This document shows, piece after piece, positions 4,145 to 62,612 of a stretch of 64,000 bases of DNA. Within the stretch, counting starts at the first letter, position 1, and each line of letters starts with the position of its first letter. The DNA comes from an uncultured Bacteroidales bacterium (lineage in GTDB: Bacteria > Bacteroidota > Bacteroidia > Bacteroidales > WCHB1-69): NCBI GenBank assembly GCA_946409645.1, contig CAMJXE010000002.1, forward strand, positions 15,808 through 79,807, given 5' to 3'. Made by a program: the position numbers and the translations under genes. The notes under the pieces were generated by a model. The model was not told the origin of the DNA. It was given only the letters and a program-made list of their open reading frames with translations, and did not search any database.

Positions 4145-5110
4145 ATGGCGAAAAAGACTTGTAACATATTGATATTTATATTGTTAGCCTTCGCGATGAA
4201 AGCGCATGCGGACGTGTTTTGCGGCTCGCTATCTGCTGATTTGCAGAAAGTTTACATTGAAAAGGACACCATCAAGCCGACGGAGGACTCAAGCAAGCCT
4301 GCTAAAAGTAACACCACGCCCGCCAAAAAGGGTAAATCCACTGTCACCAGAGTACAAAATAAGCGGGTCACTTTCGAAACATTTGATCAGAACTACGAAC
4401 GCGCCCTGAAGTACTACAACAACGGTCAGTGGCTTTCCGCTGCAAGCCTTTTCGAAGAACTTTACCCGCTATCCCTTGGTACCCCCCGCGCCGACACCAT
4501 CCTCTTCCTTTTCGCTGACTCATACTATCAAAACGCCGACTACAACATGGCAGCCTTCCATTTCCGCGATTACGTGCGCCGCTACCCCAATTCCGAACGC
4601 ACCGAAGATGCCTTCTTCCGCTGCATTCAGGCTGTTTATAAAACCAGTCCTGAATATTATCTGGATCAGTCGAACACCACATACGCCATCGAGCAGATCA
4701 AATCATTCCTGCAAGCGTATCCCGAGAACAGCCATGTGGAGGAGTGCAACCTGATGCTGGATGACCTTCGACTGAAATTAGCCCGTAAAGAGTTGGAAAT
4801 AATGAAGTTGTACTATAACACCGACCAATACGAGGCATGCAGGATTGCGGCCAAGAACTTTTTCAACAAATACGCCTACTCCCCTCTCATGCCCGAAGCA
4901 GTCTATTATCTGGTGCTGAACAACTACGAATATGCCAAACGAAGTACCGAACGCAAAAAACCTGAACGTCTGAAAGTTTGCTTGGAATCCTGCCAGAGAA
5001 TGGCTCTTCACTACCCCGACTGCAAATACGCAAAAGAAGTTGAAAAAATCTCAATAGACGTCACCAAACAATTGGAAAAATATCTTCAAAAATCAAATAA
5101 TAAGTCCTAA
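4145..5110 (+). CDS. bamD: outer membrane protein assembly factor BamD (TPR lipoprotein)
   Basis: Signal peptide, TPR-like repeats (YNNGQWLSAASLFEEL..., YYQNADYNMAAFHFRDYVRRYPNS). Sits in the conserved bamD-rpoZ-coaBC-DUF4835-recN order. Confidence 0.8.
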   Translation: MAKKTCNILIFILLAFAMKAHADVFCGSLSADLQKVYIEKDTIKPTEDSSKPAKSNTTPAKKGKSTVTRVQNKRVTFETFDQNYERALKYYNNGQWLSAASLFEELYPLSLGTPRADTILFLFADSYYQNADYNMAAFHFRDYVRRYPNSERTEDAFFRCIQAVYKTSPEYYLDQSNTTYAIEQIKSFLQAYPENSHVEECNLMLDDLRLKLARKELEIMKLYYNTDQYEACRIAAKNFFNKYAYSPLMPEAVYYLVLNNYEYAKRSTERKKPERLKVCLESCQRMALHYPDCKYAKEVEKISIDVTKQLEKYLQKSNNKS

Positions 5111-11486: not shown

Positions 11487-11612
11487 GGTTGGTTCAAGGT
11501 TTAGGGTTTAGGGTTTAAGGTTTAGGGTTTAAGGTTTAAGGTTTAAGGTTCAAGGGTTAAGGTTCAAGGGTTAAGGTTCAAGGGTTAAGGTTCTGAGGTT
11601 AGGGGTTAGGTT
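11487..11612. repeat. tandem 7-mer/14-mer tract: (GGTTTAG/GGTTTAA)x7 then (GGTTCAAGGGTTAA)x3 plus degenerate tail
   Basis: Read directly. 7-mers at 11498-11546, 14-mers at 11547-11588. It fills the whole murG-stop to proX-start spacer. Confidence 0.95.
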
Positions 11613-24011: not shown

Positions 24012-24066
24012 TTCAAGTTTCAGGATTCAAGATTCAAAGTTCAAAGCTCAAGGTTCAAGGTTAAAA
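24012..24066. repeat. degenerate 7-8-mer tract (TTCAAG-type) forming the leader of the giant gene
   Basis: ttcaagtttcaggattcaagattcaaagttcaaagctcaaggttcaaggttaaaag. It lies between the -7 box (24077-24084) and the start codon. Confidence 0.85.
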
Positions 24067-24076
24067 GTTTTGGCGG

Positions 24077-27118: not shown

Positions 27119-28183
27119 ATGAAACACCGAAGAACCATCGTTATCGTTTTGCTGAACGTCTTGTTCTGCGCCGTGCTGCTCTACTTCTTTGTCAACAACT
27201 CCTATCTTCGTCCATGGGCGGGCAGTATCACCAATGAAGTGCTTGTGGGACTGTTGCTGTTGGCCACCGTATATGCCAACTATTTCCTGTTTTACCCCCT
27301 ACTTCATAGAAAGCATCCGGTTGTCTATTGGGTGGTGGTGGTTTTCGTTTCCATTGTGGCAGGATTGATTGAAATGATTATCGCCTGGAAATGGATCAAA
27401 TATTGTAATGCGGGGGTTATAGAGCAATTTGGTGCCTTCAGAATGTTTACCCATCATGGGAGAGTTGTAGCTGCCCGAACCTTGGCATTCAACTTCTTCC
27501 CGTTTATGTTCCGGGAACGGCAGGAACTGCGAAAGGCTCTGGACGCAGAAGTGCAGGTGGTCTATCGTGACACTCTGATGGTGGATGTCGTTGACCAAAA
27601 GAGCAACCTGCTCATGATTCCCAAAAACGACATCTACTATTGTGTTCAGGACGGGAACTTCACCCGCATCTATACAGTGGATGACCGTTGGTTTACCCGG
27701 CTTGGTTCCATGAAACATCTTGTGCAACTGTTTGGGGAAGAAGACTTTGTCCGCATTTCGCCCACCGTTTTGATTCCGTATCAGTACATTTGGTCGTGCA
27801 ACGGCAGCGAGGTGTTCCTGAAAAAGATGCCGTGGACGAAGAAGCCGCTCACGTTCACGTTGGATCCCAAAAACAGTGGCCTGATTGCCGACCAGGTCGC
27901 CGAGGGTCTTCAGCGATGCAAGGCCGAAACAGCAGGGGAACAAGCTCCGAAGAGAAAGCCCCAGTCGAAGTCCAAACGGAAGCCCGTCGTCCCCCCGCAG
28001 CAGAAACTCGACATGGTTCAATCCTGCATTCAGGCGAATCCGGGCTGCAACACCACGGATATCGTCGCCCAGACCGAGATTTCGCTGAGCACGGTCGAGC
28101 GTTGCCTTTCCGAGCTCCGCAAACGCAAGCTCGTCAAATACGTCGGCAGCAAGCGCCACGGCGGTTACCATGTTAATTCATAA
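27119..28183 (+). CDS. membrane-anchored LytTR-domain DNA-binding protein with extra C-terminal winged-helix-like domain
   Basis: Three or four N-terminal TM helices. LytTR-like core (LLMIPKNDIYYCVQDGNFTRIYTVDDRWFTRLGSMKHLVQLFGEEDFVRISPTVLIPYQYI). Lys/Pro-rich linker. C-terminal NTTDIVAQTEISLSTVERCLSELRKRKLVKYVGSKRHGGY. Confidence 0.75.
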   Translation: MKHRRTIVIVLLNVLFCAVLLYFFVNNSYLRPWAGSITNEVLVGLLLLATVYANYFLFYPLLHRKHPVVYWVVVVFVSIVAGLIEMIIAWKWIKYCNAGVIEQFGAFRMFTHHGRVVAARTLAFNFFPFMFRERQELRKALDAEVQVVYRDTLMVDVVDQKSNLLMIPKNDIYYCVQDGNFTRIYTVDDRWFTRLGSMKHLVQLFGEEDFVRISPTVLIPYQYIWSCNGSEVFLKKMPWTKKPLTFTLDPKNSGLIADQVAEGLQRCKAETAGEQAPKRKPQSKSKRKPVVPPQQKLDMVQSCIQANPGCNTTDIVAQTEISLSTVERCLSELRKRKLVKYVGSKRHGGYHVNS

Positions 28184-28200
28184 TGCATAATGCATAATTA
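28177..28200. repeat. left 24-nt inverted repeat flanking the four-helix-bundle gene
   Basis: ttcataatgcataatgcataatta. Its reverse-complement partner at 28572-28595 matches 23 of 24 positions by hand alignment. Confidence 0.75.
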
Positions 28201-28560
28201 GTTGCGGTGGGCTTTGTGTTTAACGATGGAGGTGAGTATGCGGATCAATTCTTCACATTTGTTTTTCAACTCTTCATATAGGGCATTATCCAAATAACCG
28301 CTTTTGTGTAACAATTCTAACCAATAATCTGTTTCACTTGCTTCTTTAAGAGAGATGTTGAATTTAGAATAAAAATCAGAACTGCTTTGCCCTCTTATTC
28401 CCTCTCGGATATTAGTGCCAATACTGGTGCCACTCTTCAACAATTGCTCAGAAATCACCCATTCCTTTCTCTCTTTTCGCAACCAATCACAAAATCGAAC
28501 AACATCCACGGCAAATTCAGTACTCTTCACCACAATCAGATTATCTTTATTACTTTTCAT
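28198..28560 (-). CDS. four-helix-bundle protein (23S rRNA intervening-sequence protein family)
   Basis: 120 aa. SEQLLKSGTSIGTNIREG...KFNISLKEASETDYWLELL is typical of the TIGR02436-type family, from memory. Confidence 0.8.
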   Translation of the reverse strand: MKSNKDNLIVVKSTEFAVDVVRFCDWLRKERKEWVISEQLLKSGTSIGTNIREGIRGQSSSDFYSKFNISLKEASETDYWLELLHKSGYLDNALYEELKNKCEELIRILTSIVKHKAHRN

Positions 28561-28571
28561 ATCCTACCATT

Positions 28572-28595
28572 TAATTATGCATTATGAATTATGAA
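28572..28595. repeat. right 24-nt inverted repeat flanking the four-helix-bundle gene, continuing as ATTCATA heptamers on the coding strand
   Basis: taattatgcattatgaattatgaa. A related copy (aattatgcattat...) lies at 34273-34300. Confidence 0.75.
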
Positions 28596-28606
28596 TTATG
28601 AATTAA

Positions 28607-28830
28607 TCATCTCCTACCCCAATTGTCCCTATCCAAATTCCTAAAATTGATGGCCTCGCTCAGATGCCCAATCTCGATGTTCGGGCTGCCGTCGAGGTCG
28701 GCGATGGTGCGGGCCACCGCCCACGATCGCAACATCGCTGATGGTGTGGTGCGGTGCACGGAACGGCCGCGTGGAGATGATCGAGGCGTACTCGTAGCGG
28801 TCGAGACTGTCGTTGAAGGCATGGGTCACG
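28607..28830 (-). pseudogene. mosaic mini-copy of comM made of three non-contiguous segments
   Basis: 28607-28713 aligns to 30019-30125 (C-terminal 36 codons plus the stop). 28714-28787 aligns to ~30704-30774 ([23 protein letters not shown]). 28788-28830 aligns to ~30985-31029 ([11 protein letters not shown]). The seg1/seg2 junction is out of frame. Confidence 0.85.
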
Positions 28831-28951
28831 TCTTTTTACGCGAGAAAGGGTATTACGGCACTGCCACAAATCGTTTGCATTACGCTTGCTAGATGAAGAA
28901 GATTATGAAGTGACGGACGACTAAGCCATCTTTGCTACACATTTCAACAAA

Positions 28952-29424
28952 TCATTCTACCTGTTTGAATATTTTTTGTTCGTCATATTCAACTTCGCTT
29001 TCCTCCAACAGCTTTTTGTATTCGTTCACCATGTCTTGCTGTTTGTGGTGTTCCGCCTGGTTTTCGATATATCGGATAATGGTGGGTATTTCATCTTTTG
29101 AATATGAGAAAGCACCATACCTTCCTGCCAGGAGAACCAGCCGTTGGCGAGCCTGTTCTCGTTTATCCATTTCGACGAACACCCTTTGACGTGCTGCATC
29201 AAATCGGACAACGATTGTGATGGGCGCATTCCTATCAGAATGTGGACATGATCCGCCGTTCCGCCTATGGACAGAACTTTATGGCGGTTGTTTTGGATTA
29301 TGGCAATCATGTATTTGTACAGACGCTCTCTCCAAGAATCGAGGATAAGGGATCCCCTGTTTTGAACTGCAAAAACCAGTTGGATATGGATTTGCGTGTA
29401 GGTGTTGTTTCTCATTGATTTCAT
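28952..29424 (-). pseudogene. IS200-like / REP-associated tyrosine transposase (RAYT-type, HUH Y1 family) with a 1-nt frameshift
   Basis: NTYTQIHIQLVFAVQNR, HUH motif ADHVHILIG, then ...FSWQEG. The frame breaks at ~29119-29123. The next frame continues YGAFSYSKDEIPTIIRYIENQAEHH, which holds the putative catalytic Tyr region. Confidence 0.75.
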
Positions 29425-29460
29425 AATGGTTTGATTTGTTTGTGTGATAATTGTTTTTCG

Positions 29461-30018
29461 TCTTTTGTTTCGTCCCTGAAGGGACGTTTACGGGGAACCG
29501 TGATGTTTCCCGTTCTACCGAGCTTTCGTCCCTATCGGGACGTGGGACATGGGCGGCGGCTCCCTTCTACCGAGCTTTGGCCCCTGACGGGGCTATTCGC
29601 GACCGGTACGGATTTGCACAGGCGGGTACAGCGAGGATGTATGTTCCACCGGCGTAACAGCCCCGTAAGGCTCAACGACCACGATGGATGCCTTGTCCCG
29701 AAGGGACACAAGCTCGGTAGAAACGGTGTTCCCGACCGACCCCCAATGCCCCTTCAGGGGCGAAACATGTCCCGCAGGAACACAAGCCCGGTAGAAGGTC
29801 GCCACCAGGCGGACACCTTGTCCCGCAGGGACACAAACCCGGTAGAAACGGTGTTCCCGACCGACCCCCAATGCCCCCTCAGGGGCGAAACATGTCCCGC
29901 AGGGACACAAACCCGGTAGAAGGTCGCCACCAGGCGGACGCCTTGTCCCGCAGGGACACAAGCTCGGTAGGAACGACGTTTACGGACGGGTTCCCAATGC
30001 CCCTTCAGGGGCGAAACC
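29461..30018. repeat. REP-like array of GC-rich short hairpins with inverted outer arms and a ~126-bp unit repeated ~2.6 times
   Basis: Hairpins CGTCCC-TGAA-GGGACG (29471), CGTCCC-TATC-GGGACG (29527), GCCCC-TGAC-GGGGC (29579), TGTCCC-GAA-GGGACA (29694) and GCCCC-TTCA-GGGGC (29748, 29873, 29999). Tandem units at 29691-29816 and 29817-29941, then a partial unit. The left arm carries ttctaccgagc and the right arm carries gctcggtagaa. Confidence 0.85.
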
Positions 30019-31563
30019 TCACCGCCTCCCCCAATTGTCCCGGTCCAGATTCCGGAAATTGATGGCCTCGCTCAAATGCCCGATTTCGATGTTCGGGCTG
30101 CCGTCAAGGTCCGCGATGGTGCGGGAAACCTTGAGAATGCGGTCGTAGGCACGGGCGGAGAGACCGAGGCGGTCCATCGCCTGCTTCAGGAGCAGCTGCC
30201 CCGCTTCGTCGATGCGGCAATATTCCCGCACCATCCTGCTGCTCATCTGCGCGTTGGCGAAGAGTCCCGGGTGTCCCGCGAACCGCTGCTTTTGGATTTC
30301 CCGCGCCGCCACCACCCGCTTGCGGATTTCCGCGCTCCGCTCCGATGGCTTGTCGGACGCTAACTCCTCGTGGCTGACCGGGACGACCTCTACGTGCAGG
30401 TCGATGCGGTCCATCAAAGGTCCCGAAATCTTACTCAAATAGTTCTGGACCTCGAAGGGTTTGCAGGTGCAGGCAATCGTCGGGTGGTTGTAGTTGCCGC
30501 ACGGACAGGGATTCATGGCGGCGATGAACATGAACGAGGCTGGAAACTCCACCGAATACTTTGACCGCGAGATGGTGACCCGCCGTTCCTCCAACGGCTG
30601 CCGCATCACCTCCAACACCTGCCGCTTGAATTCCGGCAATTCGTCCAGAAAGAGCACACCGTTATGCGCGAGCGAAATCTCGCCCGGCTGCGGGTGCGTG
30701 CCGCCACCCACCAACGCCACATCACTGATGGTATGGTGCGGCGAACGGAACGGCCGGGTGGAGATGATGGAGGCAAAACGGCTCATCTTGCCCGCCACGG
30801 AATGGATTTTGGTGGTCTCCAAGGCCTCTTCCAAGCACAAAGGCGGCAATATCGACGGCAACCGCTTGGCCAACATGGTCTTGCCGGAGCCTGGCGGACC
30901 GATCAGAATCACATTATGTCCGCCGGCCGCCGCAATCTCCATCGCCCGCTTGATGTTCTCCTGCCCCTTTACGTCCGAAAAGTCGTACTCGTAGCGGTCG
31001 AGACTGTCGTTGAAAGCGTTGGCCACATCAATGCGCGTCGGCTCGATGGGCGTGCCCTTGTCGAAAAAGTCAATCACCTGCTTGATATCCGTGGCTCCCA
31101 AAATGTCGATGCCATCGACGATGGCGGCCTCTCGGGCGTTCTGGACGGGCAGGATCACCCCCTTTTTCTTCCGCTTCCGCGCCTCTAAGGCAATGGGCAG
31201 CGCCCCGCGGATCGGCTGAAGACTTCCATCCAGCGACAATTCCCCGAGGATAAAATAGTCCTCTAGTTCCGCCGCCCCGGCAATCTGCTCCGACGCGGCC
31301 AAGATGCCGATGGCCAGCGTCAAATCGTAGGCCGAGCCCTCTTTGCGGATGTCCGCCGGAGCCATGTTCACTACAATTTTCCGACCCGGAATCTTGTACC
31401 CATAGGCGTTTAATGCTGTTTCGATGCGTTGTTGACTCTCTTTTACCGCACTGTCGGGTAACCCGACCAAAAAGAAGCCAATTCCATTATCTACGTTGAC
31501 TTCCACAGTGATGGGTATTGCGGCAACCCCCACCAATGCACAATTGTTCGTTCTTATCAACAT
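30019..31563 (-). CDS. comM: YifB/ComM family Mg-chelatase-like AAA+ ATPase
   Basis: 514 aa. N-terminal Lon-like domain, Walker A GPPGSGKT, Walker B LFLDELPEF, C-terminal ChlI-like domain. Confidence 0.9.
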   Translation of the reverse strand: MLIRTNNCALVGVAAIPITVEVNVDNGIGFFLVGLPDSAVKESQQRIETALNAYGYKIPGRKIVVNMAPADIRKEGSAYDLTLAIGILAASEQIAGAAELEDYFILGELSLDGSLQPIRGALPIALEARKRKKKGVILPVQNAREAAIVDGIDILGATDIKQVIDFFDKGTPIEPTRIDVANAFNDSLDRYEYDFSDVKGQENIKRAMEIAAAGGHNVILIGPPGSGKTMLAKRLPSILPPLCLEEALETTKIHSVAGKMSRFASIISTRPFRSPHHTISDVALVGGGTHPQPGEISLAHNGVLFLDELPEFKRQVLEVMRQPLEERRVTISRSKYSVEFPASFMFIAAMNPCPCGNYNHPTIACTCKPFEVQNYLSKISGPLMDRIDLHVEVVPVSHEELASDKPSERSAEIRKRVVAAREIQKQRFAGHPGLFANAQMSSRMVREYCRIDEAGQLLLKQAMDRLGLSARAYDRILKVSRTIADLDGSPNIEIGHLSEAINFRNLDRDNWGRR

Positions 31564-34998: not shown

Positions 34999-35090
34999 AT
35001 TGGTTTAAGGTTTAAGATTTACTCGTTTACAAGCTTAGAAAATGAATAATTAGAAGATTGCTGGCTTAGGGGCTAAGTTTAATGTCAAGG

Positions 35091-48883: not shown

Positions 48884-49466
48884 GATAGCCATAGCTGAAC
48901 CATCCCAGATGCTGCGGCTTGGTCTCGGTAACATGCTGCGCGAACTGCCCGAGGTGGAGATCGTTTTCTCCACCGATAACCTCAATTCTCTGAATGCCAG
49001 GATATCCGCCCTTCATCCTGACATTTTGATTCTCAACCCGCAGCTGTACGAGTACGCCCGCCGCGCCACCATCCGTGCCGAGTTCGACCAACTTCCCAAC
49101 CTCCGTTTCGTCGGCCTCATCTCCTCCTATTGCGACTCGCAGCACCTCAAGCAATTCTCCGGTCTCATCGAACTTAATGACGATCTCCAGCGCGTGAAAT
49201 CCACCATCAACCAAGTGATCGGCGCCATTCAAAACGATTCCGACGAACCCGACACAGACCCCCTCTCCGACCGCGAAAAGGAGGTGCTCATCTGTCTTTC
49301 CAAAGGACTGAAAAACAACGAAATAGCCGACACACTCAACATCTCCGTCCACACCGTTATCACCCACCGCAAAAACATCGTCCGCAAAACCGGCATCAAG
49401 TCCGTCGCCGCCCTCACCGTCTATGCCATTCTGAACAACCTCATCGAAGAAAAAGACATTATTTAG
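48876..49466 (+). CDS. LuxR/GerE-type HTH regulator with atypical (non-phosphorylatable-looking) receiver-like N-terminus
   Basis: C-terminal LSDREKEVLICLSKGLKNNEIADTLNISVHTVITHRKNI. The N-terminus has IAIAEPS where DD is expected, and DILILNPQL where the acceptor Asp is expected. Overlaps the upstream gene by 8 nt. Confidence 0.75.
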   Translation: MIKIAIAEPSQMLRLGLGNMLRELPEVEIVFSTDNLNSLNARISALHPDILILNPQLYEYARRATIRAEFDQLPNLRFVGLISSYCDSQHLKQFSGLIELNDDLQRVKSTINQVIGAIQNDSDEPDTDPLSDREKEVLICLSKGLKNNEIADTLNISVHTVITHRKNIVRKTGIKSVAALTVYAILNNLIEEKDII

Positions 49467-49475
49467 TTAGCAGTT

Positions 49476-49571
49476 TATACCGAAAAGCCCCCATATATGA
49501 AACCACTTCCTTGAGCAGCCCCGTAGGGGCAAGAGCTAGGTAGCCAGGGGTGAGCGCAGCGAAACCCCTGG
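49476..49571 (+). repeat. ~96-bp structured intergenic element, copy A
   Basis: Near-identical to 51610-51706. Contains hairpins GCCCC-GTA-GGGGC (49518-49530) and CCAGGGG-N14-CCCCTGG (49544-49571). Confidence 0.9.
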
Positions 49572-49640
49572 GAGGGATGACGACGATGACACGATGATGC
49601 GATGACACGATGACGACGATGAATGACGATGAATAACGAA
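49572..49640 (+). repeat. GATGAC-type microsatellite abutting copy A
   Basis: gagggatgacgacgatgacacgatgatgcgatgacacgatgacgacgatgaatgacgatgaataacgaata. Confidence 0.9.
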
Positions 49641-49653
49641 TACCCACGTAAAT

Positions 49654-51573
49654 ATGAATAGAACAATCACCCTAATTATCACATTATGCCTCGCGTGGTT
49701 GGCAGCCACCGCGCAGGAACCCGACCCCTACGCCGGTTACGACCGTCTCACCCTCTATGACAGCATGACCGTGCGTATGGAGGAGAACGGTCTCAGCCAT
49801 TATGTGAACCATCAGCGATACAGAGTGTTGAGTGACGCGGGCTGCCGCGACAACAACACGGTCATCGTCGATTACGACCCTCTGTCGGCCTACTGCGAGA
49901 TCCGCGACGTGGTCGTCTATCGCCACGACGGCACCGAGGAGCACCCCGACTTCATGGTGTGCGACTATCCCGCGCCTGCCCACATGATCTACTGGGGCGC
50001 GCGACAGAAGATGGTCGCCCTCGGTCGCCTCGAAATTGGCGACGAAGTGGAGTTCCTGACCTACAAGAAGGGCTACTCATACGCATTGTTGCAGGGCGAA
50101 GACCCTGACGCGAAGTACATCCCGCCTATGAGCGGCCACTTCTACGACATCGTGCCGTTCTGGAGCAACCAACCCGTGCAGGAGAAAGTGTATCAGGTCA
50201 GTGTACTGACAAACAAGAATTTGCAGTATAAGGTTTACAACGGGAATCTTTCGGTGACCTCGAAGAAGGATGGCGACCGCACGGTTTACACCTTCTCGAA
50301 AAAGGATTACTTCCCGTTGAAGACCCCGCGCTATACAGTGGCCAACAACGACATCGAGCCGAAGCTCATCGTGACCACCGCGCAGAACTGGGAGGCCAAG
50401 TCGATGTGGTTCTACGGCGTGAACGAGGACTTCGGCAGCTTCGAGCCGACCCCTGAAATCCAGCAGAAGGTGAACGAGTTGCTGAAACCGGCGAGAACCG
50501 AGAACGACAGTCTGGACATCCTCACGCACTGGGTGGCCGACAACATTCGCTACTCGGGCATCTCGATGGGCGAGGGCGAAGGTTACACGCTGCACAAGTG
50601 CGAAATGACCTTCCGCGACCGTTGCGGTGTCTGCAAAGACAAAGCAGGGATACTCATCGGCATGTTGCGGGCGGCGGGCTTCAAAGCATACGCGGCAATG
50701 ACGATGGCTGGCGAGCGCATCGAGGACATCCCTGCCGACCAGTTCAACCACTGCATCACGGTGGTACAGCGACGCAACGGAAACTATCAACTTCTTGACC
50801 CTACGTGGGTTCCGGGCGTCAGAGGCGAGTTGTGGTCCAGCGCGGAACAGCAACAGAACTACCTCATGGGACTCCCCAAGGGCGCGAAATTGGGAACCAC
50901 GCCCGTCTCCGACCCGAAAAACCACTACGTGCGCATGACCGCTCAAAGCGAAGTCTTGAAAAACGGAACGCTCAAAGCTACCGTCACCATCACCGCAGAT
51001 CGACAATCCGACCGGACGGTGCGCGGTGTATTCCGCGGTTTCCGCACCGAATGGCGCAACAACGTGGAATCGATGCTTTACCAAGAATACCCTAACGCAA
51101 AAATCAAATCCGTGAAATATACCAGTGAAGACGACTACCTCAAGCAACCCGTCAAAATCACCTACCAGTTTGAGATTCCCGACTATGCAATTGTGACGGA
51201 TAATGAAGTGATTGCCACCCCTTTCCTCGCCAATGGCTTCTATAAGTTTGCCATGCGTCACCTCTACTACGACACCCGCCTCGAAAAGCGCGACTATCCT
51301 TTCACGGACCGCTGCTCCCGCTACGTGGCTATCACCGAAACAATGAAAGTGCCTTCGGGCTACACCCGCGTAAGCGTCCCCGAAGCCAAGCAGTTCGTCA
51401 CTCCAAACATCTCGTTCAAAGGCGGTTACAGTATCGACTACAACATGGTCACCTTCTCCGAGAACATCTCCCTCGGCAAGCGCGTCTATGATGCCTCCGA
51501 ATGGCCCGCGTTCCGCAAGGCGGTGCAATGCCAACGGGGATATATGGGAAATCCCGTGATTTTCATCAAATAA
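49654..51573 (+). CDS. DUF3857-like plus transglutaminase-like cysteine protease-fold protein
   Basis: Signal peptide. Transglutaminase core with Cys (RCGVCKDKAGILIGMLRAAGF), His (FNHCITV) and Asp (LLDPTW). Confidence 0.75.
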   Translation: MNRTITLIITLCLAWLAATAQEPDPYAGYDRLTLYDSMTVRMEENGLSHYVNHQRYRVLSDAGCRDNNTVIVDYDPLSAYCEIRDVVVYRHDGTEEHPDFMVCDYPAPAHMIYWGARQKMVALGRLEIGDEVEFLTYKKGYSYALLQGEDPDAKYIPPMSGHFYDIVPFWSNQPVQEKVYQVSVLTNKNLQYKVYNGNLSVTSKKDGDRTVYTFSKKDYFPLKTPRYTVANNDIEPKLIVTTAQNWEAKSMWFYGVNEDFGSFEPTPEIQQKVNELLKPARTENDSLDILTHWVADNIRYSGISMGEGEGYTLHKCEMTFRDRCGVCKDKAGILIGMLRAAGFKAYAAMTMAGERIEDIPADQFNHCITVVQRRNGNYQLLDPTWVPGVRGELWSSAEQQQNYLMGLPKGAKLGTTPVSDPKNHYVRMTAQSEVLKNGTLKATVTITADRQSDRTVRGVFRGFRTEWRNNVESMLYQEYPNAKIKSVKYTSEDDYLKQPVKITYQFEIPDYAIVTDNEVIATPFLANGFYKFAMRHLYYDTRLEKRDYPFTDRCSRYVAITETMKVPSGYTRVSVPEAKQFVTPNISFKGGYSIDYNMVTFSENISLGKRVYDASEWPAFRKAVQCQRGYMGNPVIFIK

Positions 51574-51600
51574 GGCAATAGGCAATAGGCAAAAGGCAAC
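51574..51600. repeat. AGGCAATA 8-mer tandem tract
   Basis: aggcaataggcaataggcaaaaggcaac, immediately after the stop codon. Confidence 0.85.
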
Positions 51601-51609
51601 AGAAATGTA

Positions 51610-51706
51610 TATGCCGAAAAGCTCCCAATATATTAAACTTCTTCCTTGAGCAGCCCCGTAGGGGCAAGAGCTTGGTAGCCAGGGGTGAGCGCAGCGAAAC
51701 CCCTGG
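51610..51706 (+). repeat. ~96-bp structured intergenic element, copy B
   Basis: Same order of blocks and hairpins as copy A (GCCCC-GTA-GGGGC at 51653-51665, CCAGGGG..CCCCTGG at 51679-51706). Followed by an ATGAC-type microsatellite at 51707-51745. Confidence 0.9.
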
Positions 51707-51755
51707 AACGAATGACGACAATGACACGATGAAACGATGAATTAACAATAATATA

Positions 51756-53222
51756 ATGAGAAACAGATGCCAACATACAACATGGTTAGTGACCATCACG
51801 ATTCTTTTGGTTATTGGTGATTTGACCTATAGCTTTTACCAGCATTCCAAATATCCGATGGATGGGGACATGGAGGAGTCCGTTCTGCCCCGCGACTATC
51901 TGCTCCCACTCTATCATGACCCTTTCGGCGTCAAGATGCTCGCCAACGGGGAGCCGCACGCCGCACCCAACCGTTTTTTCTCCCATTATCTGCTGTACAA
52001 GACCTATCGCACTGTTCCTTTTTGGCTGCAAAAGGTAGTAGAACCGCTGACAAGCATTTATTTGACTAATGCGATTTGTAAAATCTTCATGCAAATTGCA
52101 CTGTTATTGCTACTCTGTGCGCTGGCTTGCGGCGGTTTCCGATTCAAGGAGCCTCGCTTTTATCTTGCCATGCTGCTGTTCACACCACTTTTCCAAACTA
52201 ACGGTCCAGTCCGCCGCTTCGGACTGATTGACCCGTCGTTGACGTACTCCTTTTTCTATGCGCTTCCCCTTGTCTTCTTGATTTGCTGTCTGTTACCATT
52301 TATTTACGAAGAATTCTTTCACCGGAAGTTTCTTTCCAATTTATTTCTACGCACCATTTGGTTCGTGTTTTTCCTCATTCTGACCTGCTTCTCAGGGGCG
52401 GTCAATGTGGCTATCGCGCTCCTCGCAATTTTCACGTTGGTCTTGCGTTACATTATCTCATTTTGCTTTGATAAGGCACTGGAAAAGAAATCGTTACGGC
52501 TGTTTTTCAAATCTATTCCGAAGCATTATTGGTTGTATATGTTGCCATTAGGTTTGCTGTCGCTTTACTCGTTCTGGTTGGGTACTTACAACACTATATG
52601 GTGGGGTGAGACGCTGACACTGGCGGAGCGCTATCAAATGCTGCCCCAAGGTTTCTTGAAAATGTTTGATGAACCCCCATTCGTCATCTTTGTTGCGCTT
52701 TCCGTGCTGAACTTCGCGATTGTTGCGCTGAAATTTCCGAAGAAGGGTAATGCCGTGATCCAAATTTTTATCTGGATGAACGTTTTCGCATTGCTTTATA
52801 TGGTCTTGCTCCCTTTAGGCGGATACCGTTCGTACCGTCCTATTATTATTCGTTACGATGTCATGATTGGGGTTACTTTCCTATATATCTTCCACCTCGT
52901 CTATTCTACATTGTTTTTGATTGAGAATTTCAGCCAAAACAAAGTCAAGATTCCTTATTTGATTGGATGTCTGGCGTTTATGGTCTATTTTTCGGCGGTT
53001 GACAAACCCTTGCAGTTGGGTTGGGGAAACGAGAGGGAAATCGCCGCTATTCGGAAAATCCAAGCAGCGACCGAGACACCGGTGGTTCTGACGGAACTGG
53101 CGACGGTGGTGTCATGGGAACCGATATACAGTGTTGAGCAATCGCGGAATGCTTCTCAAATGCTGTACATGTGGCATATTACGGACAGTGTAAAACCCTT
53201 TTATTGTCTAAAGAAAGAATAA
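51756..53222 (+). CDS. hypothetical polytopic membrane protein (488 aa, about 10 or more TM helices)
   Basis: Long hydrophobic-helix-rich ORF between the two DUF3857-like genes. No recognised family. Confidence 0.65.
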   Translation: MRNRCQHTTWLVTITILLVIGDLTYSFYQHSKYPMDGDMEESVLPRDYLLPLYHDPFGVKMLANGEPHAAPNRFFSHYLLYKTYRTVPFWLQKVVEPLTSIYLTNAICKIFMQIALLLLLCALACGGFRFKEPRFYLAMLLFTPLFQTNGPVRRFGLIDPSLTYSFFYALPLVFLICCLLPFIYEEFFHRKFLSNLFLRTIWFVFFLILTCFSGAVNVAIALLAIFTLVLRYIISFCFDKALEKKSLRLFFKSIPKHYWLYMLPLGLLSLYSFWLGTYNTIWWGETLTLAERYQMLPQGFLKMFDEPPFVIFVALSVLNFAIVALKFPKKGNAVIQIFIWMNVFALLYMVLLPLGGYRSYRPIIIRYDVMIGVTFLYIFHLVYSTLFLIENFSQNKVKIPYLIGCLAFMVYFSAVDKPLQLGWGNEREIAAIRKIQAATETPVVLTELATVVSWEPIYSVEQSRNASQMLYMWHITDSVKPFYCLKKE

Positions 53223-58702: not shown

Positions 58703-59839
58703 ATGACGCAAATTATTGAGATAAAAGAAGTTAAAAGCAACGAGGACTTGAAGCGTTTTATACAATTCCCCCGAAAAATATACAAAACCTGTCCGTATTA
58801 TGTCCCGGCTCTGGACAAAGGCGAGGAAAAACTGCTGACCAAACACCCCGCTTTAGCGTTCTGCGACCTACGGATGTGGCTCGCCTTCCGCAACGACGAA
58901 GTGGTCGGGCGCATCGCGGGCATCATCAACCGAAGGTGCAACGAAATCAAAGGACAAAAGCGCATCCGCTTCGCCTGGTTCGATGTCATAGAGGACTTTG
59001 AAGTGACTAAAAAGCTGTTCGAAACTGTGGAAGATTGGGGGAAGTCGGAAGGTTTGGAAGAGATTTGCGGTCCGTCGCGCTACTCCAACATGGAGAAGCA
59101 AGGCATGCTGGTGGACGGCTTCGACCACATCACCTCTTTGGGTGCCGAATATAATTACCCATATTACCCTGAATACATGGACCTTATAGGTTTCGAAAAG
59201 GAAGTGGATTATCTCCAGTACAAGGTAAAAGTCACTCCTGTTTCCGAACGTATTTCCCATATAGCCGAACTCGTAGGCCAAAAGTATCATGTTCGTTTGC
59301 GTGAAATCAAAGACAAAGCACAGTTGAAAAAAGACGGCTACGCCTTTTTGGAAGTCTTAAACGAAAGCTATCACGATATTTTCAATTTCATCCCGCTCAC
59401 CCACGAAGAAATGACTTGGATTATCGACGAAAACCTTTCCGTGGGTGTTTTGGATTTGATATCTTTTCTGGAAGATGAAAACGGTAGATTAGTCGGCATC
59501 GCCATGAGCATACCTTCATTGAATCAGGCCTTTAGAAAGGCTAACGGTCATTTGTGGCCCTTCGGTATGTTCCATCTGTTGCACGGGTTGCATCACAACA
59601 AAAACGTGGATTTGTTACTCACGGGAGTGCTGCCCGAGTACTTGCACACCGGTATCCATGCTATCTACCATAAACAACTCCACGAAGCCTTCCTGCGACA
59701 TGGATTCGAATACGCTTACACGTCGCAGCAACTCGAAAACAATATCGCTGCTCGCATCTGGCAGAAATACGACGCGGAGATCATTTCAAGACGCCGCTGC
59801 TATGTGAAAAGAATGGATGATTTGAGAATTGATAATTGA
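58703..59839 (+). CDS. GNAT-fold-like acyltransferase family protein, paralog of 44134-45249
   Basis: Colinear similarity over the full length (FPxxxYKxCxxxVPAL, LAFRxxEVVGRIAxIIN, IRFxWFDxIED, NYxYY, GFxKEVD, PFGxxH, GVxPEY). Confidence 0.6.
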   Translation: MTQIIEIKEVKSNEDLKRFIQFPRKIYKTCPYYVPALDKGEEKLLTKHPALAFCDLRMWLAFRNDEVVGRIAGIINRRCNEIKGQKRIRFAWFDVIEDFEVTKKLFETVEDWGKSEGLEEICGPSRYSNMEKQGMLVDGFDHITSLGAEYNYPYYPEYMDLIGFEKEVDYLQYKVKVTPVSERISHIAELVGQKYHVRLREIKDKAQLKKDGYAFLEVLNESYHDIFNFIPLTHEEMTWIIDENLSVGVLDLISFLEDENGRLVGIAMSIPSLNQAFRKANGHLWPFGMFHLLHGLHHNKNVDLLLTGVLPEYLHTGIHAIYHKQLHEAFLRHGFEYAYTSQQLENNIAARIWQKYDAEIISRRRCYVKRMDDLRIDN

Positions 59840-59922
59840 TAATTATTGGGGTAGTAGTTTTCTCATCGCATTATCGCATCAAAACCCAATATCCCAAATC
59901 CACAGTCATAAGTCAAAATCCA

Positions 59923-62545: not shown

Positions 62546-62612
62546 GGGTTTCAGGTTTCAAGTTTCAGGTTTCAAGTTTCAAGTTTCAAGTCTTAAGTCT
62601 CAAGTCTCAAAC
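62543..62612. repeat. GTTTCAA/GTCTCAA heptamer tract forming the uvrC leader
   Basis: caagggtttcaggtttcaagtttcaggtttcaagtttcaagtttcaagtcttaagtctcaagtctcaaac, between the -7 box (62616-62623) and the start codon. Confidence 0.9.

Follow-up and report, generated by a model that had tools for sequence, protein, structure and literature searches.

A probable REPtron-like locus formed by a frameshifted Y1 transposase gene and its hairpin repeats in an uncultured Bacteroidales bacterium

A stretch of 64,000 nucleotides from an uncultured Bacteroidales bacterium (assembly GCA_946409645.1, contig CAMJXE010000002.1, positions 15,808 to 79,807), referred to here at its full length as the window, contains a disrupted gene for a Y1 HUH transposase and, directly upstream of it, a dense array of small GC hairpins that reaches to the stop codon of comM. 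We interpret this locus, with a probability of roughly 0.7, as REPtron-like, that is, as a single-copy and fixed Y1 transposase gene of subclass 1.2 together with a cluster of cognate hairpin repeats, now inactive in this strain. The repeats are built from a module with the consensus (G)YCCC-N3-4-GGGR(C), 8 nt and GGTAG, the stem of which comprises 5-6 bp of GC character, and this module recurs beside homologues of the gene in other bacteria as well as in short elements dispersed between genes. A preliminary description, made from the sequence alone, had proposed a REP-associated tyrosine transposase (RAYT) accompanied by repetitive extragenic palindromes (REPs). The architecture that it recognised is borne out by the REPtron-like layout, whereas its assignment of the enzyme and of the repeats to canonical families is not.

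The open reading frames (ORFs) 29424-29026 (132 residues) and 29182-28952 together encode one protein of 157 residues, joined between WQEG and YGAF. The Pfam model Y1_Tnp (PF01797) matches the first of these frames at 1.2e-19 and the joined protein at 1.3e-26, in the latter case over the whole model from end to end, in agreement with the earlier suggestion that the pair of frames represents a Y1 HUH transposase. The joined protein contains the motifs DHVHILIG, FSWQEGYGAF and RYIENQAEHH and has the catalytic core of Y1 HUH enzymes, namely an HUH motif and a single tyrosine on the C-terminal helix. Across 41 homologues, D58, H59, H61, W99, Q100, Y119, I120, Q123, H126 and H127 are invariant, as are E135, Y136 and L140 in the C-terminal tail. 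A tblastn search locates one copy of the gene within the window.

The affinities of the protein lie with IS200-like enzymes and not with the RAYT family that was first proposed. The protein passes the NCBIfam equivalog transpos_IS200 (NF033573) with 72.8 bits against a cut-off of 55, whereas it fails the RAYT equivalog REP_Tyr_transpos (NF047646) with 25.8 bits against a cut-off of 80. In sequence searches of the Protein Data Bank (PDB), ISDra2 TnpA is the best match both for the protein alone (1.7e-6) and for a profile of the 41 members (1.6e-11); the profile next retrieves IS608 and Sulfolobus enzymes and recovers every IS200/IS605 TnpA. E. coli TnpAREP (4ER8) is missing from these matches, at E <= 1 for the single sequence and at E <= 10 for the profile. 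Similarly, the top Foldseek matches of an AlphaFold2 (AF2) model of the protein (pLDDT 83.9) are ISDra2 and IS608 TnpA, and 4ER8 appears at rank 30 (E = 3.4e-5, 15% identity), after 29 IS200/IS605 TnpA chains.

Within the classification of Quentin et al. 2018 (PMC6006769), the protein fits TnpAY1 subclass 1.2. This subclass is described there by DH[IV]H, WQ and YIKNQKEHH, a length of about 148 residues, a tail of ~30 residues and a low copy number in Cyanobacteria and Bacteroidetes, and it is considered akin to the IS200 transposases but without the properties of an insertion sequence (IS). The corresponding set of features (DH[IV]H, WQ, YI.NQ..HH and ~150 residues with a conserved tail of ~30 residues) is represented here by DHVH, WQEG, YIENQAEHH and 157 residues. 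The sources of the homologues, which are Bacteroidales, Prevotella, Salinivirgaceae, Chitinophagaceae and Algoriphagus, accord with the low-copy distribution of the subclass in Bacteroidetes and Cyanobacteria. All class-2 enzymes (RAYT/TnpAREP) carry the tyrosine motif Y---NP, as defined in the same study (PMC6006769), whereas that of the present protein is Y---Q--HH, so that the gene does not belong to the RAYT family.

The reading frame is broken by the loss of a single nucleotide. On the minus strand, the sequence tgg cag gaa ggt atg gtg stands where intact homologues have cag gag ggt tat ggc, one T being missing at the SWQEG/YGAFSYS junction, exactly where the preliminary description had placed the lesion, and tblastn correspondingly breaks the protein at residue 103. 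Among 5.8 billion proteins searched, there were many intact homologues of 157 residues, the best of them 96% identical (P0001, P0002), as well as the truncated frame of 132 residues, which is on record as P0056 and is encoded on an independent 805-bp ENA contig (L001). Over 711 nt, 12 substitutions and no gaps distinguish this contig from the window (98.3% DNA identity), and it has the same deletion. Since two distinguishable strains share it, the deletion is a real inherited mutation and the gene a pseudogene; the sequencing error that had been entertained initially is thereby ruled out. A programmed frameshift is likewise ruled out, as there is no slippery site and all homologues read in one open frame. 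Judged from these sequences, the gene is a recent pseudogene in the source strain and the window locus a fossil. A further metagenome-assembled genome (MAG), ruminal_MAG_164 (L097), has a near-identical comM and, behind it, a short solo array (4340-4590) with one module in inverted and one in direct orientation and an additional hairpin. An unrelated gene of 293 residues comes next, and there is neither a Y1 gene nor a comM remnant. Frameshifted in the window and in L001 and absent from L097, the gene is thus expendable.

The array (29467-30018) comprises 11 hairpins in two inverted arms, the whole cluster measuring about 590 bp. Read in the sense of the Y1 gene, it leads from the comM stop codon through the distal arm, a centre of ~97 nt and the proximal arm to a final ~45 nt before the ATG. 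In this sense, the eight hairpins of the distal arm are five CTACC-N8-hairpin modules and three hairpins of the form GTTTCG-CCCC-N4-GGGG-C. On the plus strand, these read as five hairpin-N8-GGTAG modules, of which one has an imperfect stem, and as three GCCCC-N4-GGGGC hairpins followed by GAAAC, the last of which ends at 30017, one base short of the comM stop codon (30019-30021). The proximal arm contains two hairpin-N8-GGTAG modules and then the final hairpin CGTCCCttcaGGGACG-AAAC. Tandem Repeats Finder reports a period of 125 in 2.6 copies with 90% matches (29691-30017), and the inverted pairs I1-I16 of a repeat finder relate one arm to the other, so that the inverted arms, the internal tandem unit and the junction with comM are all recovered as previously outlined. 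Within the window, AARCYCGGTAGRA occurs seven times, every copy in the array, where 0.45 would be expected, and GCCCC-N4-GGGGC and GTCCC-N3-GGGAC, with four copies each, are also confined to the array (0.03-0.04 expected each). When folded as single-stranded DNA (586 nt), as the preliminary description had recommended, the array gives z = -7.2 and -7.6 relative to shuffles. A CRISPR-like array, which the GAAAC repeat ends had prompted us to consider, is ruled out by the fact that the 'spacers' are themselves repeated, that the arms are inverted and that there are no cas genes.

The link between gene and repeats is provided by homologous loci that were chosen through the protein alone, the DNA motif having no part in the choice. 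At 23 such loci, 82 modules are located less than 700 bp from the Y1 gene and none in the remaining 119.5 kb, and the orientation is consistent throughout, GGTAG always lying on the gene side of the hairpin. These loci cover four independent contexts (comM type A, comM type B, RseC/radA and pyrF/ADH, the last standing for an alcohol dehydrogenase gene). Homologues with 87% identity (L002-L011) share the synteny of the window, with a radical-SAM gene, DUF5618, comM, array and Y1 gene, and those with 82% identity (L012-L017) adjoin comM with other outer neighbours, one arm being upstream and an inverted arm downstream. A homologue with 74% identity (L018) lies between an RseC/AAA gene and radA and has composite arrays on both sides, and homologues with 64% identity (L019-L024) lie between pyrF and the alcohol dehydrogenase gene with one module per side. 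Each orthologue is found at one locus and in one context over many assemblies, as an apparently single-copy gene at a fixed position. Inverted arms on both sides of the gene are present in L013-L017, L018, L019-L024, L116 and L126; the flanking arrangement envisaged by the preliminary description is therefore the usual one among relatives, whereas in the window and in L002-L011 both arms are upstream, on one side. The arrays change quickly, as is evident from the comM-to-Y1 gap, which measures 594 bp in the window, 530, 454 and 402 bp in close relatives and 175 bp in L013, and from the numbers of modules in the proximal and distal arms, which are 2/5 in the window and 5/2 in L031.

The sequence of the proximal arm (hairpin, AAAGCTCGGTAGAAC, ~25 nt, hairpin, GAAAC) is near-invariant among Bacteroidales homologues, and the arm is nearly unchanged upstream of the gene in L002, L004, L007, L013, L018, L019, L031, L116 and L126. 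In L126, which encodes a 53%-identical Chitinophagaceae homologue, the second hairpin of this arm has two compensatory pair changes (CGCTCC/GGAGCG), and in Algoriphagus, where the homologues are about 54% identical, a module is located downstream of the gene; the homologues of these two groups span 53-55% identity. Indeed, a module stands next to every homologue inspected, from 96% down to 53% identity, in Bacteroidales, Chitinophagaceae and Algoriphagus and in unrelated contexts, which contradicts the absence of associated REPs or terminal hairpins recorded for subclass 1.2 in Table 1 of PMC6006769, a descriptive entry rather than a defining motif. The spacing between hairpin and GGTAG is 8 nt in 183 of 183 distinct modules. 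The Y:R stem pair, the only one left free by the search patterns, is complementary in 175 of these, where about 95 would be expected, and six of the eight non-complementary pairs are T:G. The hairpin is thus under selection for pairing.

These loci also bear on whether the gene could be an ordinary autonomous IS of the IS200/IS605 family, now dead, with the hairpins as its ends and the dispersed elements described below either unrelated or derived as miniature inverted-repeat transposable elements (MITEs). Such an origin would be in line with the IS200 equivalog, with ISDra2 and IS608 TnpA as the closest solved structures and with the single arm per gene side in L013, L019, L116 and L126, which resembles IS ends. 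It nevertheless appears improbable, since the locus is constant in every assembly of a given lineage and the comM neighbour has been kept in lineages between which comM itself is only 75% identical, no second or near-identical copy was seen among the loci and assemblies inspected, and tnpB is absent. An IS200/IS605 element would be expected to have several near-identical copies and one subterminal hairpin on the same strand at each end, as in IS608 and ISDra2, whereas the loci inspected have inverted arms of multiple copies. In addition, Y---Q--HH and the C-terminal tail place the protein in a subclass (1.2) that is considered not to be IS-like (PMC6006769).

Two modules of the window are located outside the array. 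They belong to the 96-bp elements at 49476 and 51610, whose kinship with the array had already been noted and is confirmed by a shared hairpin and 8-nt spacing (GCCCCgtaGGGGC, AAGAGCT[A/T], GGTAG); the first is 83 nt away from the start codon of the gene downstream of it, which encodes a protein of 639 residues. A scan of 185,579 species genomes with the pattern CTACCNAGCTNNNGYCCCN{3,4}GGGRC yielded at least 116 stretches. The matches listed, to which the following counts refer, stem mostly from rumen Bacteroidales MAGs, eight of which each have modules in at least 5-8 separate 8-kb stretches, consistent with the dispersed family that had been predicted. The dispersed consensus of ~70 nt is TTCCTTGAGCA-GCCCC-N3-4-GGGGC-AAGAGCTYGGTAG, followed by AA or, in 23 of 75 copies, by CC and a second hairpin. 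In this type, GGTAG is positioned at the 3' foot of an extended TTGAGC/GCTCGG stem, and conservation on the left side fades about 9-17 nt before TTCC, AAA being present at -8 to -6 in 48-64 of the 75 copies. Of the 107 modules outside arrays, 97 fall between genes according to a crude ORF call, and mostly between co-directional ones; 50 are in sense and 15 in antisense to the flanking genes, and the median distance to the next start codon is 78 nt. Arrays of at least five modules stand beside a Y1 gene of the same family in L031, L116, L126 and L049. The arrays of L124 and L132 lack such a gene within their 8-kb stretches. Both stretches belong to the MAG RGIG1517 (L124 3776-3929, L132 973-1277), and the arrays contain 4-6 GGTAG modules with a spacing of ~51 bp.

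Five matches of the scan outside Bacteroidota (L029, L041, L103, L120 and L122, from four other phyla) are not repeat elements and all represent one conserved 23S rRNA helix, located 3' of the sarcin-ricin loop (CCAGCTGTCCCTCCAGGGGCATAAGCTGGGTAGCC). From GGGGCA to GGTAGCCA.G, this helix is identical to the dispersed element at 20 of 23 positions; Rfam reports no match to large-subunit rRNA (LSU) on the elements, and the likeness is probably a coincidence.

A metagenome scan with the 639-residue protein, which is encoded between the two elements of the window, retrieved 80 orthologous loci. In strains with 86-98% protein identity, the two spacers contain the same element, variants in which other hairpin modules have taken the place of GGTAG and the second hairpin, or no element, and those free of it hold the heptamer tract alone (e.g. 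L198, L158). According to this comparison, which showed presence or absence only, the spacers combine several hairpin families with heptamer tracts in a mosaic manner, and to judge from these strains the dispersed elements are polymorphic over short time scales.

In the spacers around the 639-residue orthologue in L144-L161, other hairpin families alternate with the GGTAG module in strain-variable mosaics that resemble bacterial interspersed mosaic elements (BIMEs). These families are AAGACGCGCGAAGCGCTAATAA with CCCCACAC-N12-GTGTGGGG (a mini-hairpin of the GCGAAGC type), TTCCCCTTCTTTAAGAAGGGG with GCCCGAAGGGC, and TTCCTTGAAAGCCCTGTAAGGGC. Tandem tracts with units of 7-8 nt, among them GGTTTAA (14.6 copies), TTCAAGG, TAATGCA, AATTATG, AGGCAAT, GTTTCAA (nine copies) and others, occupy intergenic positions of the window at 11491-11592, 24012-24069, 28174-28198, 28573-28605, 35002-35021, 49576-49639, 51573-51599, 51721-51741, 59822-59844 and 62548-62610, and several of them abut a start codon. 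Tracts of this kind also border the dispersed hairpin elements of other rumen Bacteroidales MAGs, and in some cases (L032, L128) an element has one and the same unit to its left and to its right.

The placement of the dispersed copies is relevant to a second alternative, according to which the hairpins act mainly at the level of RNA or transcription without the Y1 protein, those behind comM serving as a 3' stabiliser or insulator and those upstream of genes as modules of 5' untranslated regions, and the adjacency to the Y1 gene is historical. This would account for the first hairpin beginning 8 nt past the comM stop codon in the window, L002 and L097, for the predominance of sense copies a short distance before start codons, and for the T:G pairs, which are tolerated in RNA. 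We consider it unlikely, since the hairpins have no T-tails and a terminator and promoter scan of 28500-30200 found no excess over shuffles. Rfam reports nothing beyond noise (PhotoRC-I at 18.6 bits; a Dictyostelium snoRNA) for the whole window at gathering thresholds, for the array at E <= 1 and for 49440-51800 at E <= 10. Moreover, it leaves unexplained that the module, with its fixed spacing and orientation, stands beside the Y1 gene in unrelated contexts in three orders. REPs are known to have gained secondary roles at the RNA level, and thus an RNA-level role and a REPtron-like origin are not exclusive.

The Y1 locus of the window is bracketed by comM and a decayed duplicate of it, the pieces of which correspond to comM nt 535-583, 790-871 and 1439-1545 with 85-88% identity and overlap by 7 and 13 nt (microhomologies). 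The copy of the comM 3' end that is present in L002-L016 has a constant start at comM nt ~1157, which falls within a GACCTC-N6-GAGGTC palindrome. In front of it stands TAATCCCAAYTTG, a conserved motif that is foreign to comM and occurs once per locus. With the comM 3' end of the respective genome, each copy shares 94-95% identity, whereas comM of the two lineages is only 75% identical, a pattern that points to gene conversion or repeated site-specific events. The remnant in the window is without this junction motif, and L116 has neither a comM remnant nor the motif. Strains differ in the cargo that separates the Y1 gene from the remnant. It may consist of a toxin-antitoxin-like nucleotidyltransferase (NTP_transf_2), alone or accompanied by HEPN, of an AAA_14/DUF4143 ATPase or of a Fib_succ_major protein, and it is absent from the window. 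Homology between strains ends about 17-35 nt past the Y1 stop codon. In L005 (3094-5470), a gene for a large serine recombinase of 525 residues is located directly upstream of a comM that is cut to its last 238 residues, which suggests a separate element inserted in the 5' part of comM. A gene for a 120-residue 23S_rRNA_IVP protein (PF05635, 3.5e-27; four-helix bundle) lies between two heptamer tracts at 28198-28560 of the window and is mostly missing from L116.

That array, gene and variable cargo are the remains of an integrative island targeting comM, the hairpins being recombination or attachment (att) machinery rather than a REP family, would accommodate the displaced comM 3' copy with its constant start after TAATCCCAAYTTG, the variable cargo, the break in homology behind the Y1 gene and the splitting of comM by a serine-recombinase element in L005, and is still the least probable of the three alternatives, because the unit of gene and modules also occurs away from comM and without a remnant (L018, L019, L126, Algoriphagus), for which reason the comM duplicate does not explain the repeats, and because modules appear to be dispersed genome-wide, the island would be without an integrase and the junction motif is lacking in the window and L116.

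Y1 HUH enzymes such as the TnpA proteins of IS608 and ISDra2 and E. coli TnpAREP bind a hairpin in single-stranded DNA and cut a nearby site that is set by short adjacent sequences. By analogy, the enzyme of the REPtron-like locus would bind the module hairpin on single-stranded DNA, cut and rejoin at a site set by the GGTAG region at its fixed distance, and mobilise the short elements in trans. A selected hairpin and a tag at a fixed 8 nt that accompany a fixed Y1 gene across three orders and are also dispersed lead us to infer that the enzyme recognises the module and has spread the short elements, and possibly is still spreading them. The arrangement in the window (inverted arm, centre, direct arm, gene) may represent a junction of right and left ends placed before the gene, as could arise from a tandem dimer followed by deletion, and one arm has grown by tandem duplication of the 125-bp unit. 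Since the window gene is a pseudogene, its repeats would be orphaned unless another copy of the gene is present elsewhere in the genome.

Several points weigh against the REPtron-like interpretation. The dispersed elements share just the hairpin, the N8 spacer and GGTAG with the modules flanking the gene, the left flank TTCCTTGAGCA and the second hairpin being their own, and the polarity of the motif is unlike that of canonical REPs. The entry for subclass 1.2 in Quentin et al. 2018 (PMC6006769) is 'REP: no', and the enzyme activity of this subclass is presumed by analogy. There are two dispersed copies in 64 kb, and the per-genome counts from the scan are lower bounds. The sense bias (50 versus 15) and the median of 78 nt before the start codon could reflect an RNA-level role rather than targeting by a transposase, and the L097 MAG keeps dispersed elements though its comM locus is without the Y1 gene.

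A more general proposal, which we rate at even odds, is that subclass 1.2 represents the enzyme of a second, independently domesticated REP/RAYT-like system across Bacteroidota with a recognition architecture of its own (hairpin, 8 nt, GGTAG), derivatives of which were seeded or retained in rumen Bacteroidales ~80 nt upstream of start codons in sense orientation, as possible 5'-leader modules. REP/RAYT is the textbook case of a domesticated bacterial transposase kept with non-autonomous repeats and has been linked, chiefly in Proteobacteria, to class-2 enzymes and GTAG-tagged REPs. If the proposal is true, domestication from IS200-like ancestors happened at least twice, subclass 1.2, to which no function is attached, gains a testable DNA substrate with a precise consensus, and the mosaic of small hairpins that makes intergenic regions of rumen Bacteroidales strain-variable is explained. 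The finding is of moderate interest to specialists in mobile DNA, the window itself holding a dead copy. The coordinates of the features are collected in Table 1.

Table 1. Positions of the transposase gene, its repeats and the comM-related features (window coordinates unless a locus handle is given)
Feature	Position	Strand	Evidence or remark
Y1 HUH transposase pseudogene, 157 residues (TnpAY1 subclass 1.2, IS200-like)	28952..29424	minus	Pfam, NCBIfam, homologues, AF2 model
1-nt deletion, GGTTAT to GGTAT; frame shifts between WQEG and YGAF	29119..29120	minus	sequence read; comparison with L002; tblastn split; shared with L001
Gene-proximal arm, two hairpin-N8-GGTAG modules and terminal hairpin	29467..29593	minus	repeats, motif scans
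Module hairpins of the proximal arm	29580-29593, 29527-29542		CTACC on plus strand at 29567-29571, 29515-29519
Terminal hairpin CGTCCC-ttca-GGGACG and AAAC	29467-29486		about 45 nt before ATG
Centre between arms	29594..29690	.	~55 nt beside proximal arm conserved in L031, L097
Distal arm, inverted relative to proximal arm	29691..30018	plus	125-bp unit x2.6; abuts comM stop
comM/yifB (ChlI, Mg_chelatase, Mg_chelatase_C domains)	30019..31563	minus	conserved Y1 neighbour in several rumen Bacteroidales lineages
Decayed comM duplicate	28607..28832	minus	brackets Y1 locus together with comM
Dispersed element: AAAC-cac-TTCCTTGAGCA, hairpin GCCCCgtaGGGGC, AAGAGCTA, GGTAG, hairpin CCAGGGG-N14-CCCCTGG	49500..49571	plus	
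Second copy of dispersed element	51635..51706	plus	upstream of gene for 488-residue membrane protein
comM 3' copy in relatives	L002 7701-8101; L013 7591-7991		
Strain-variable cargo between Y1 gene and comM remnant	L002 6475-7700; L004 6475-7740; L007 1563-3176; L012 5475-7590		

Among known systems, the TnpA proteins of IS200/IS605 elements (IS608, ISDra2; subclass 1.1) share with the present protein the fold and the catalytic motifs, provide its best matches in sequence and structure and presumably share a chemistry via hairpins of single-stranded DNA. The locus differs from these elements in that the gene is not multi-copy, has no tnpB and occupies a fixed syntenic position, and in its inverted arms of several modules, in contrast to one same-strand subterminal hairpin per end. 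Two class-2 subclasses of the same phylum, 2.4 and 2.6 (RAYT groups 4 and 5), also have flanking REP-like or 'atypical' structures with copies in the genome, which have already been described (PMC6006769), but their proteins comprise 179-194 residues with NH.H, WQ and YI..NP and are not the family found here. The remark that REP/RAYT systems are little characterised in Bacteroidota therefore does not hold for these two subclasses, although it does for the repeats of subclass 1.2. With subclass 1.2 itself (PMC6006769), the protein agrees in its motifs (DHVH for DH[IV]H, WQ, YIENQAEHH for YIKNQKEHH), its length (157 against about 148 residues with a tail of ~30), its low copy number and its occurrence in Bacteroidetes; the difference is that all members inspected here have hairpin-N8-GGTAG modules beside the gene and that related elements are dispersed. 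No publication attributing repeats to subclass 1.2 came up in full-text literature searches, and in this sense its repeat family is hitherto undescribed.

The REPtron, comprising E. coli TnpAREP/RAYT of class 2 with its REPs and BIMEs (Nunvar 2010, Ton-Hoang 2012, Messing 2012, PDB 4ER8), likewise combines a single-copy, fixed Y1 HUH gene with inverted clusters of GC hairpins, intergenic dispersed hairpins, a GTAG-containing tag by the hairpin and a cluster size that varies between strains. On the protein side, it differs in the tyrosine motif (Y---NP, in contrast to Y---Q--HH), the RAYT model fails here, and 4ER8 is unmatched by sequence. The repeats are not canonical REPs, since the canonical tag GT[AG]G lies 0-2 nt 5' of the hairpin foot, whereas GGTAG lies here 8 nt 3' of the GGGRC half-stem. 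In addition, the dispersed copies are mostly singletons or direct doublets, located mostly just upstream of genes, and not inverted REPIN doublets. Thus, the REPtron is functionally the closest known system, whereas by membership the protein belongs to TnpAY1 subclass 1.2.

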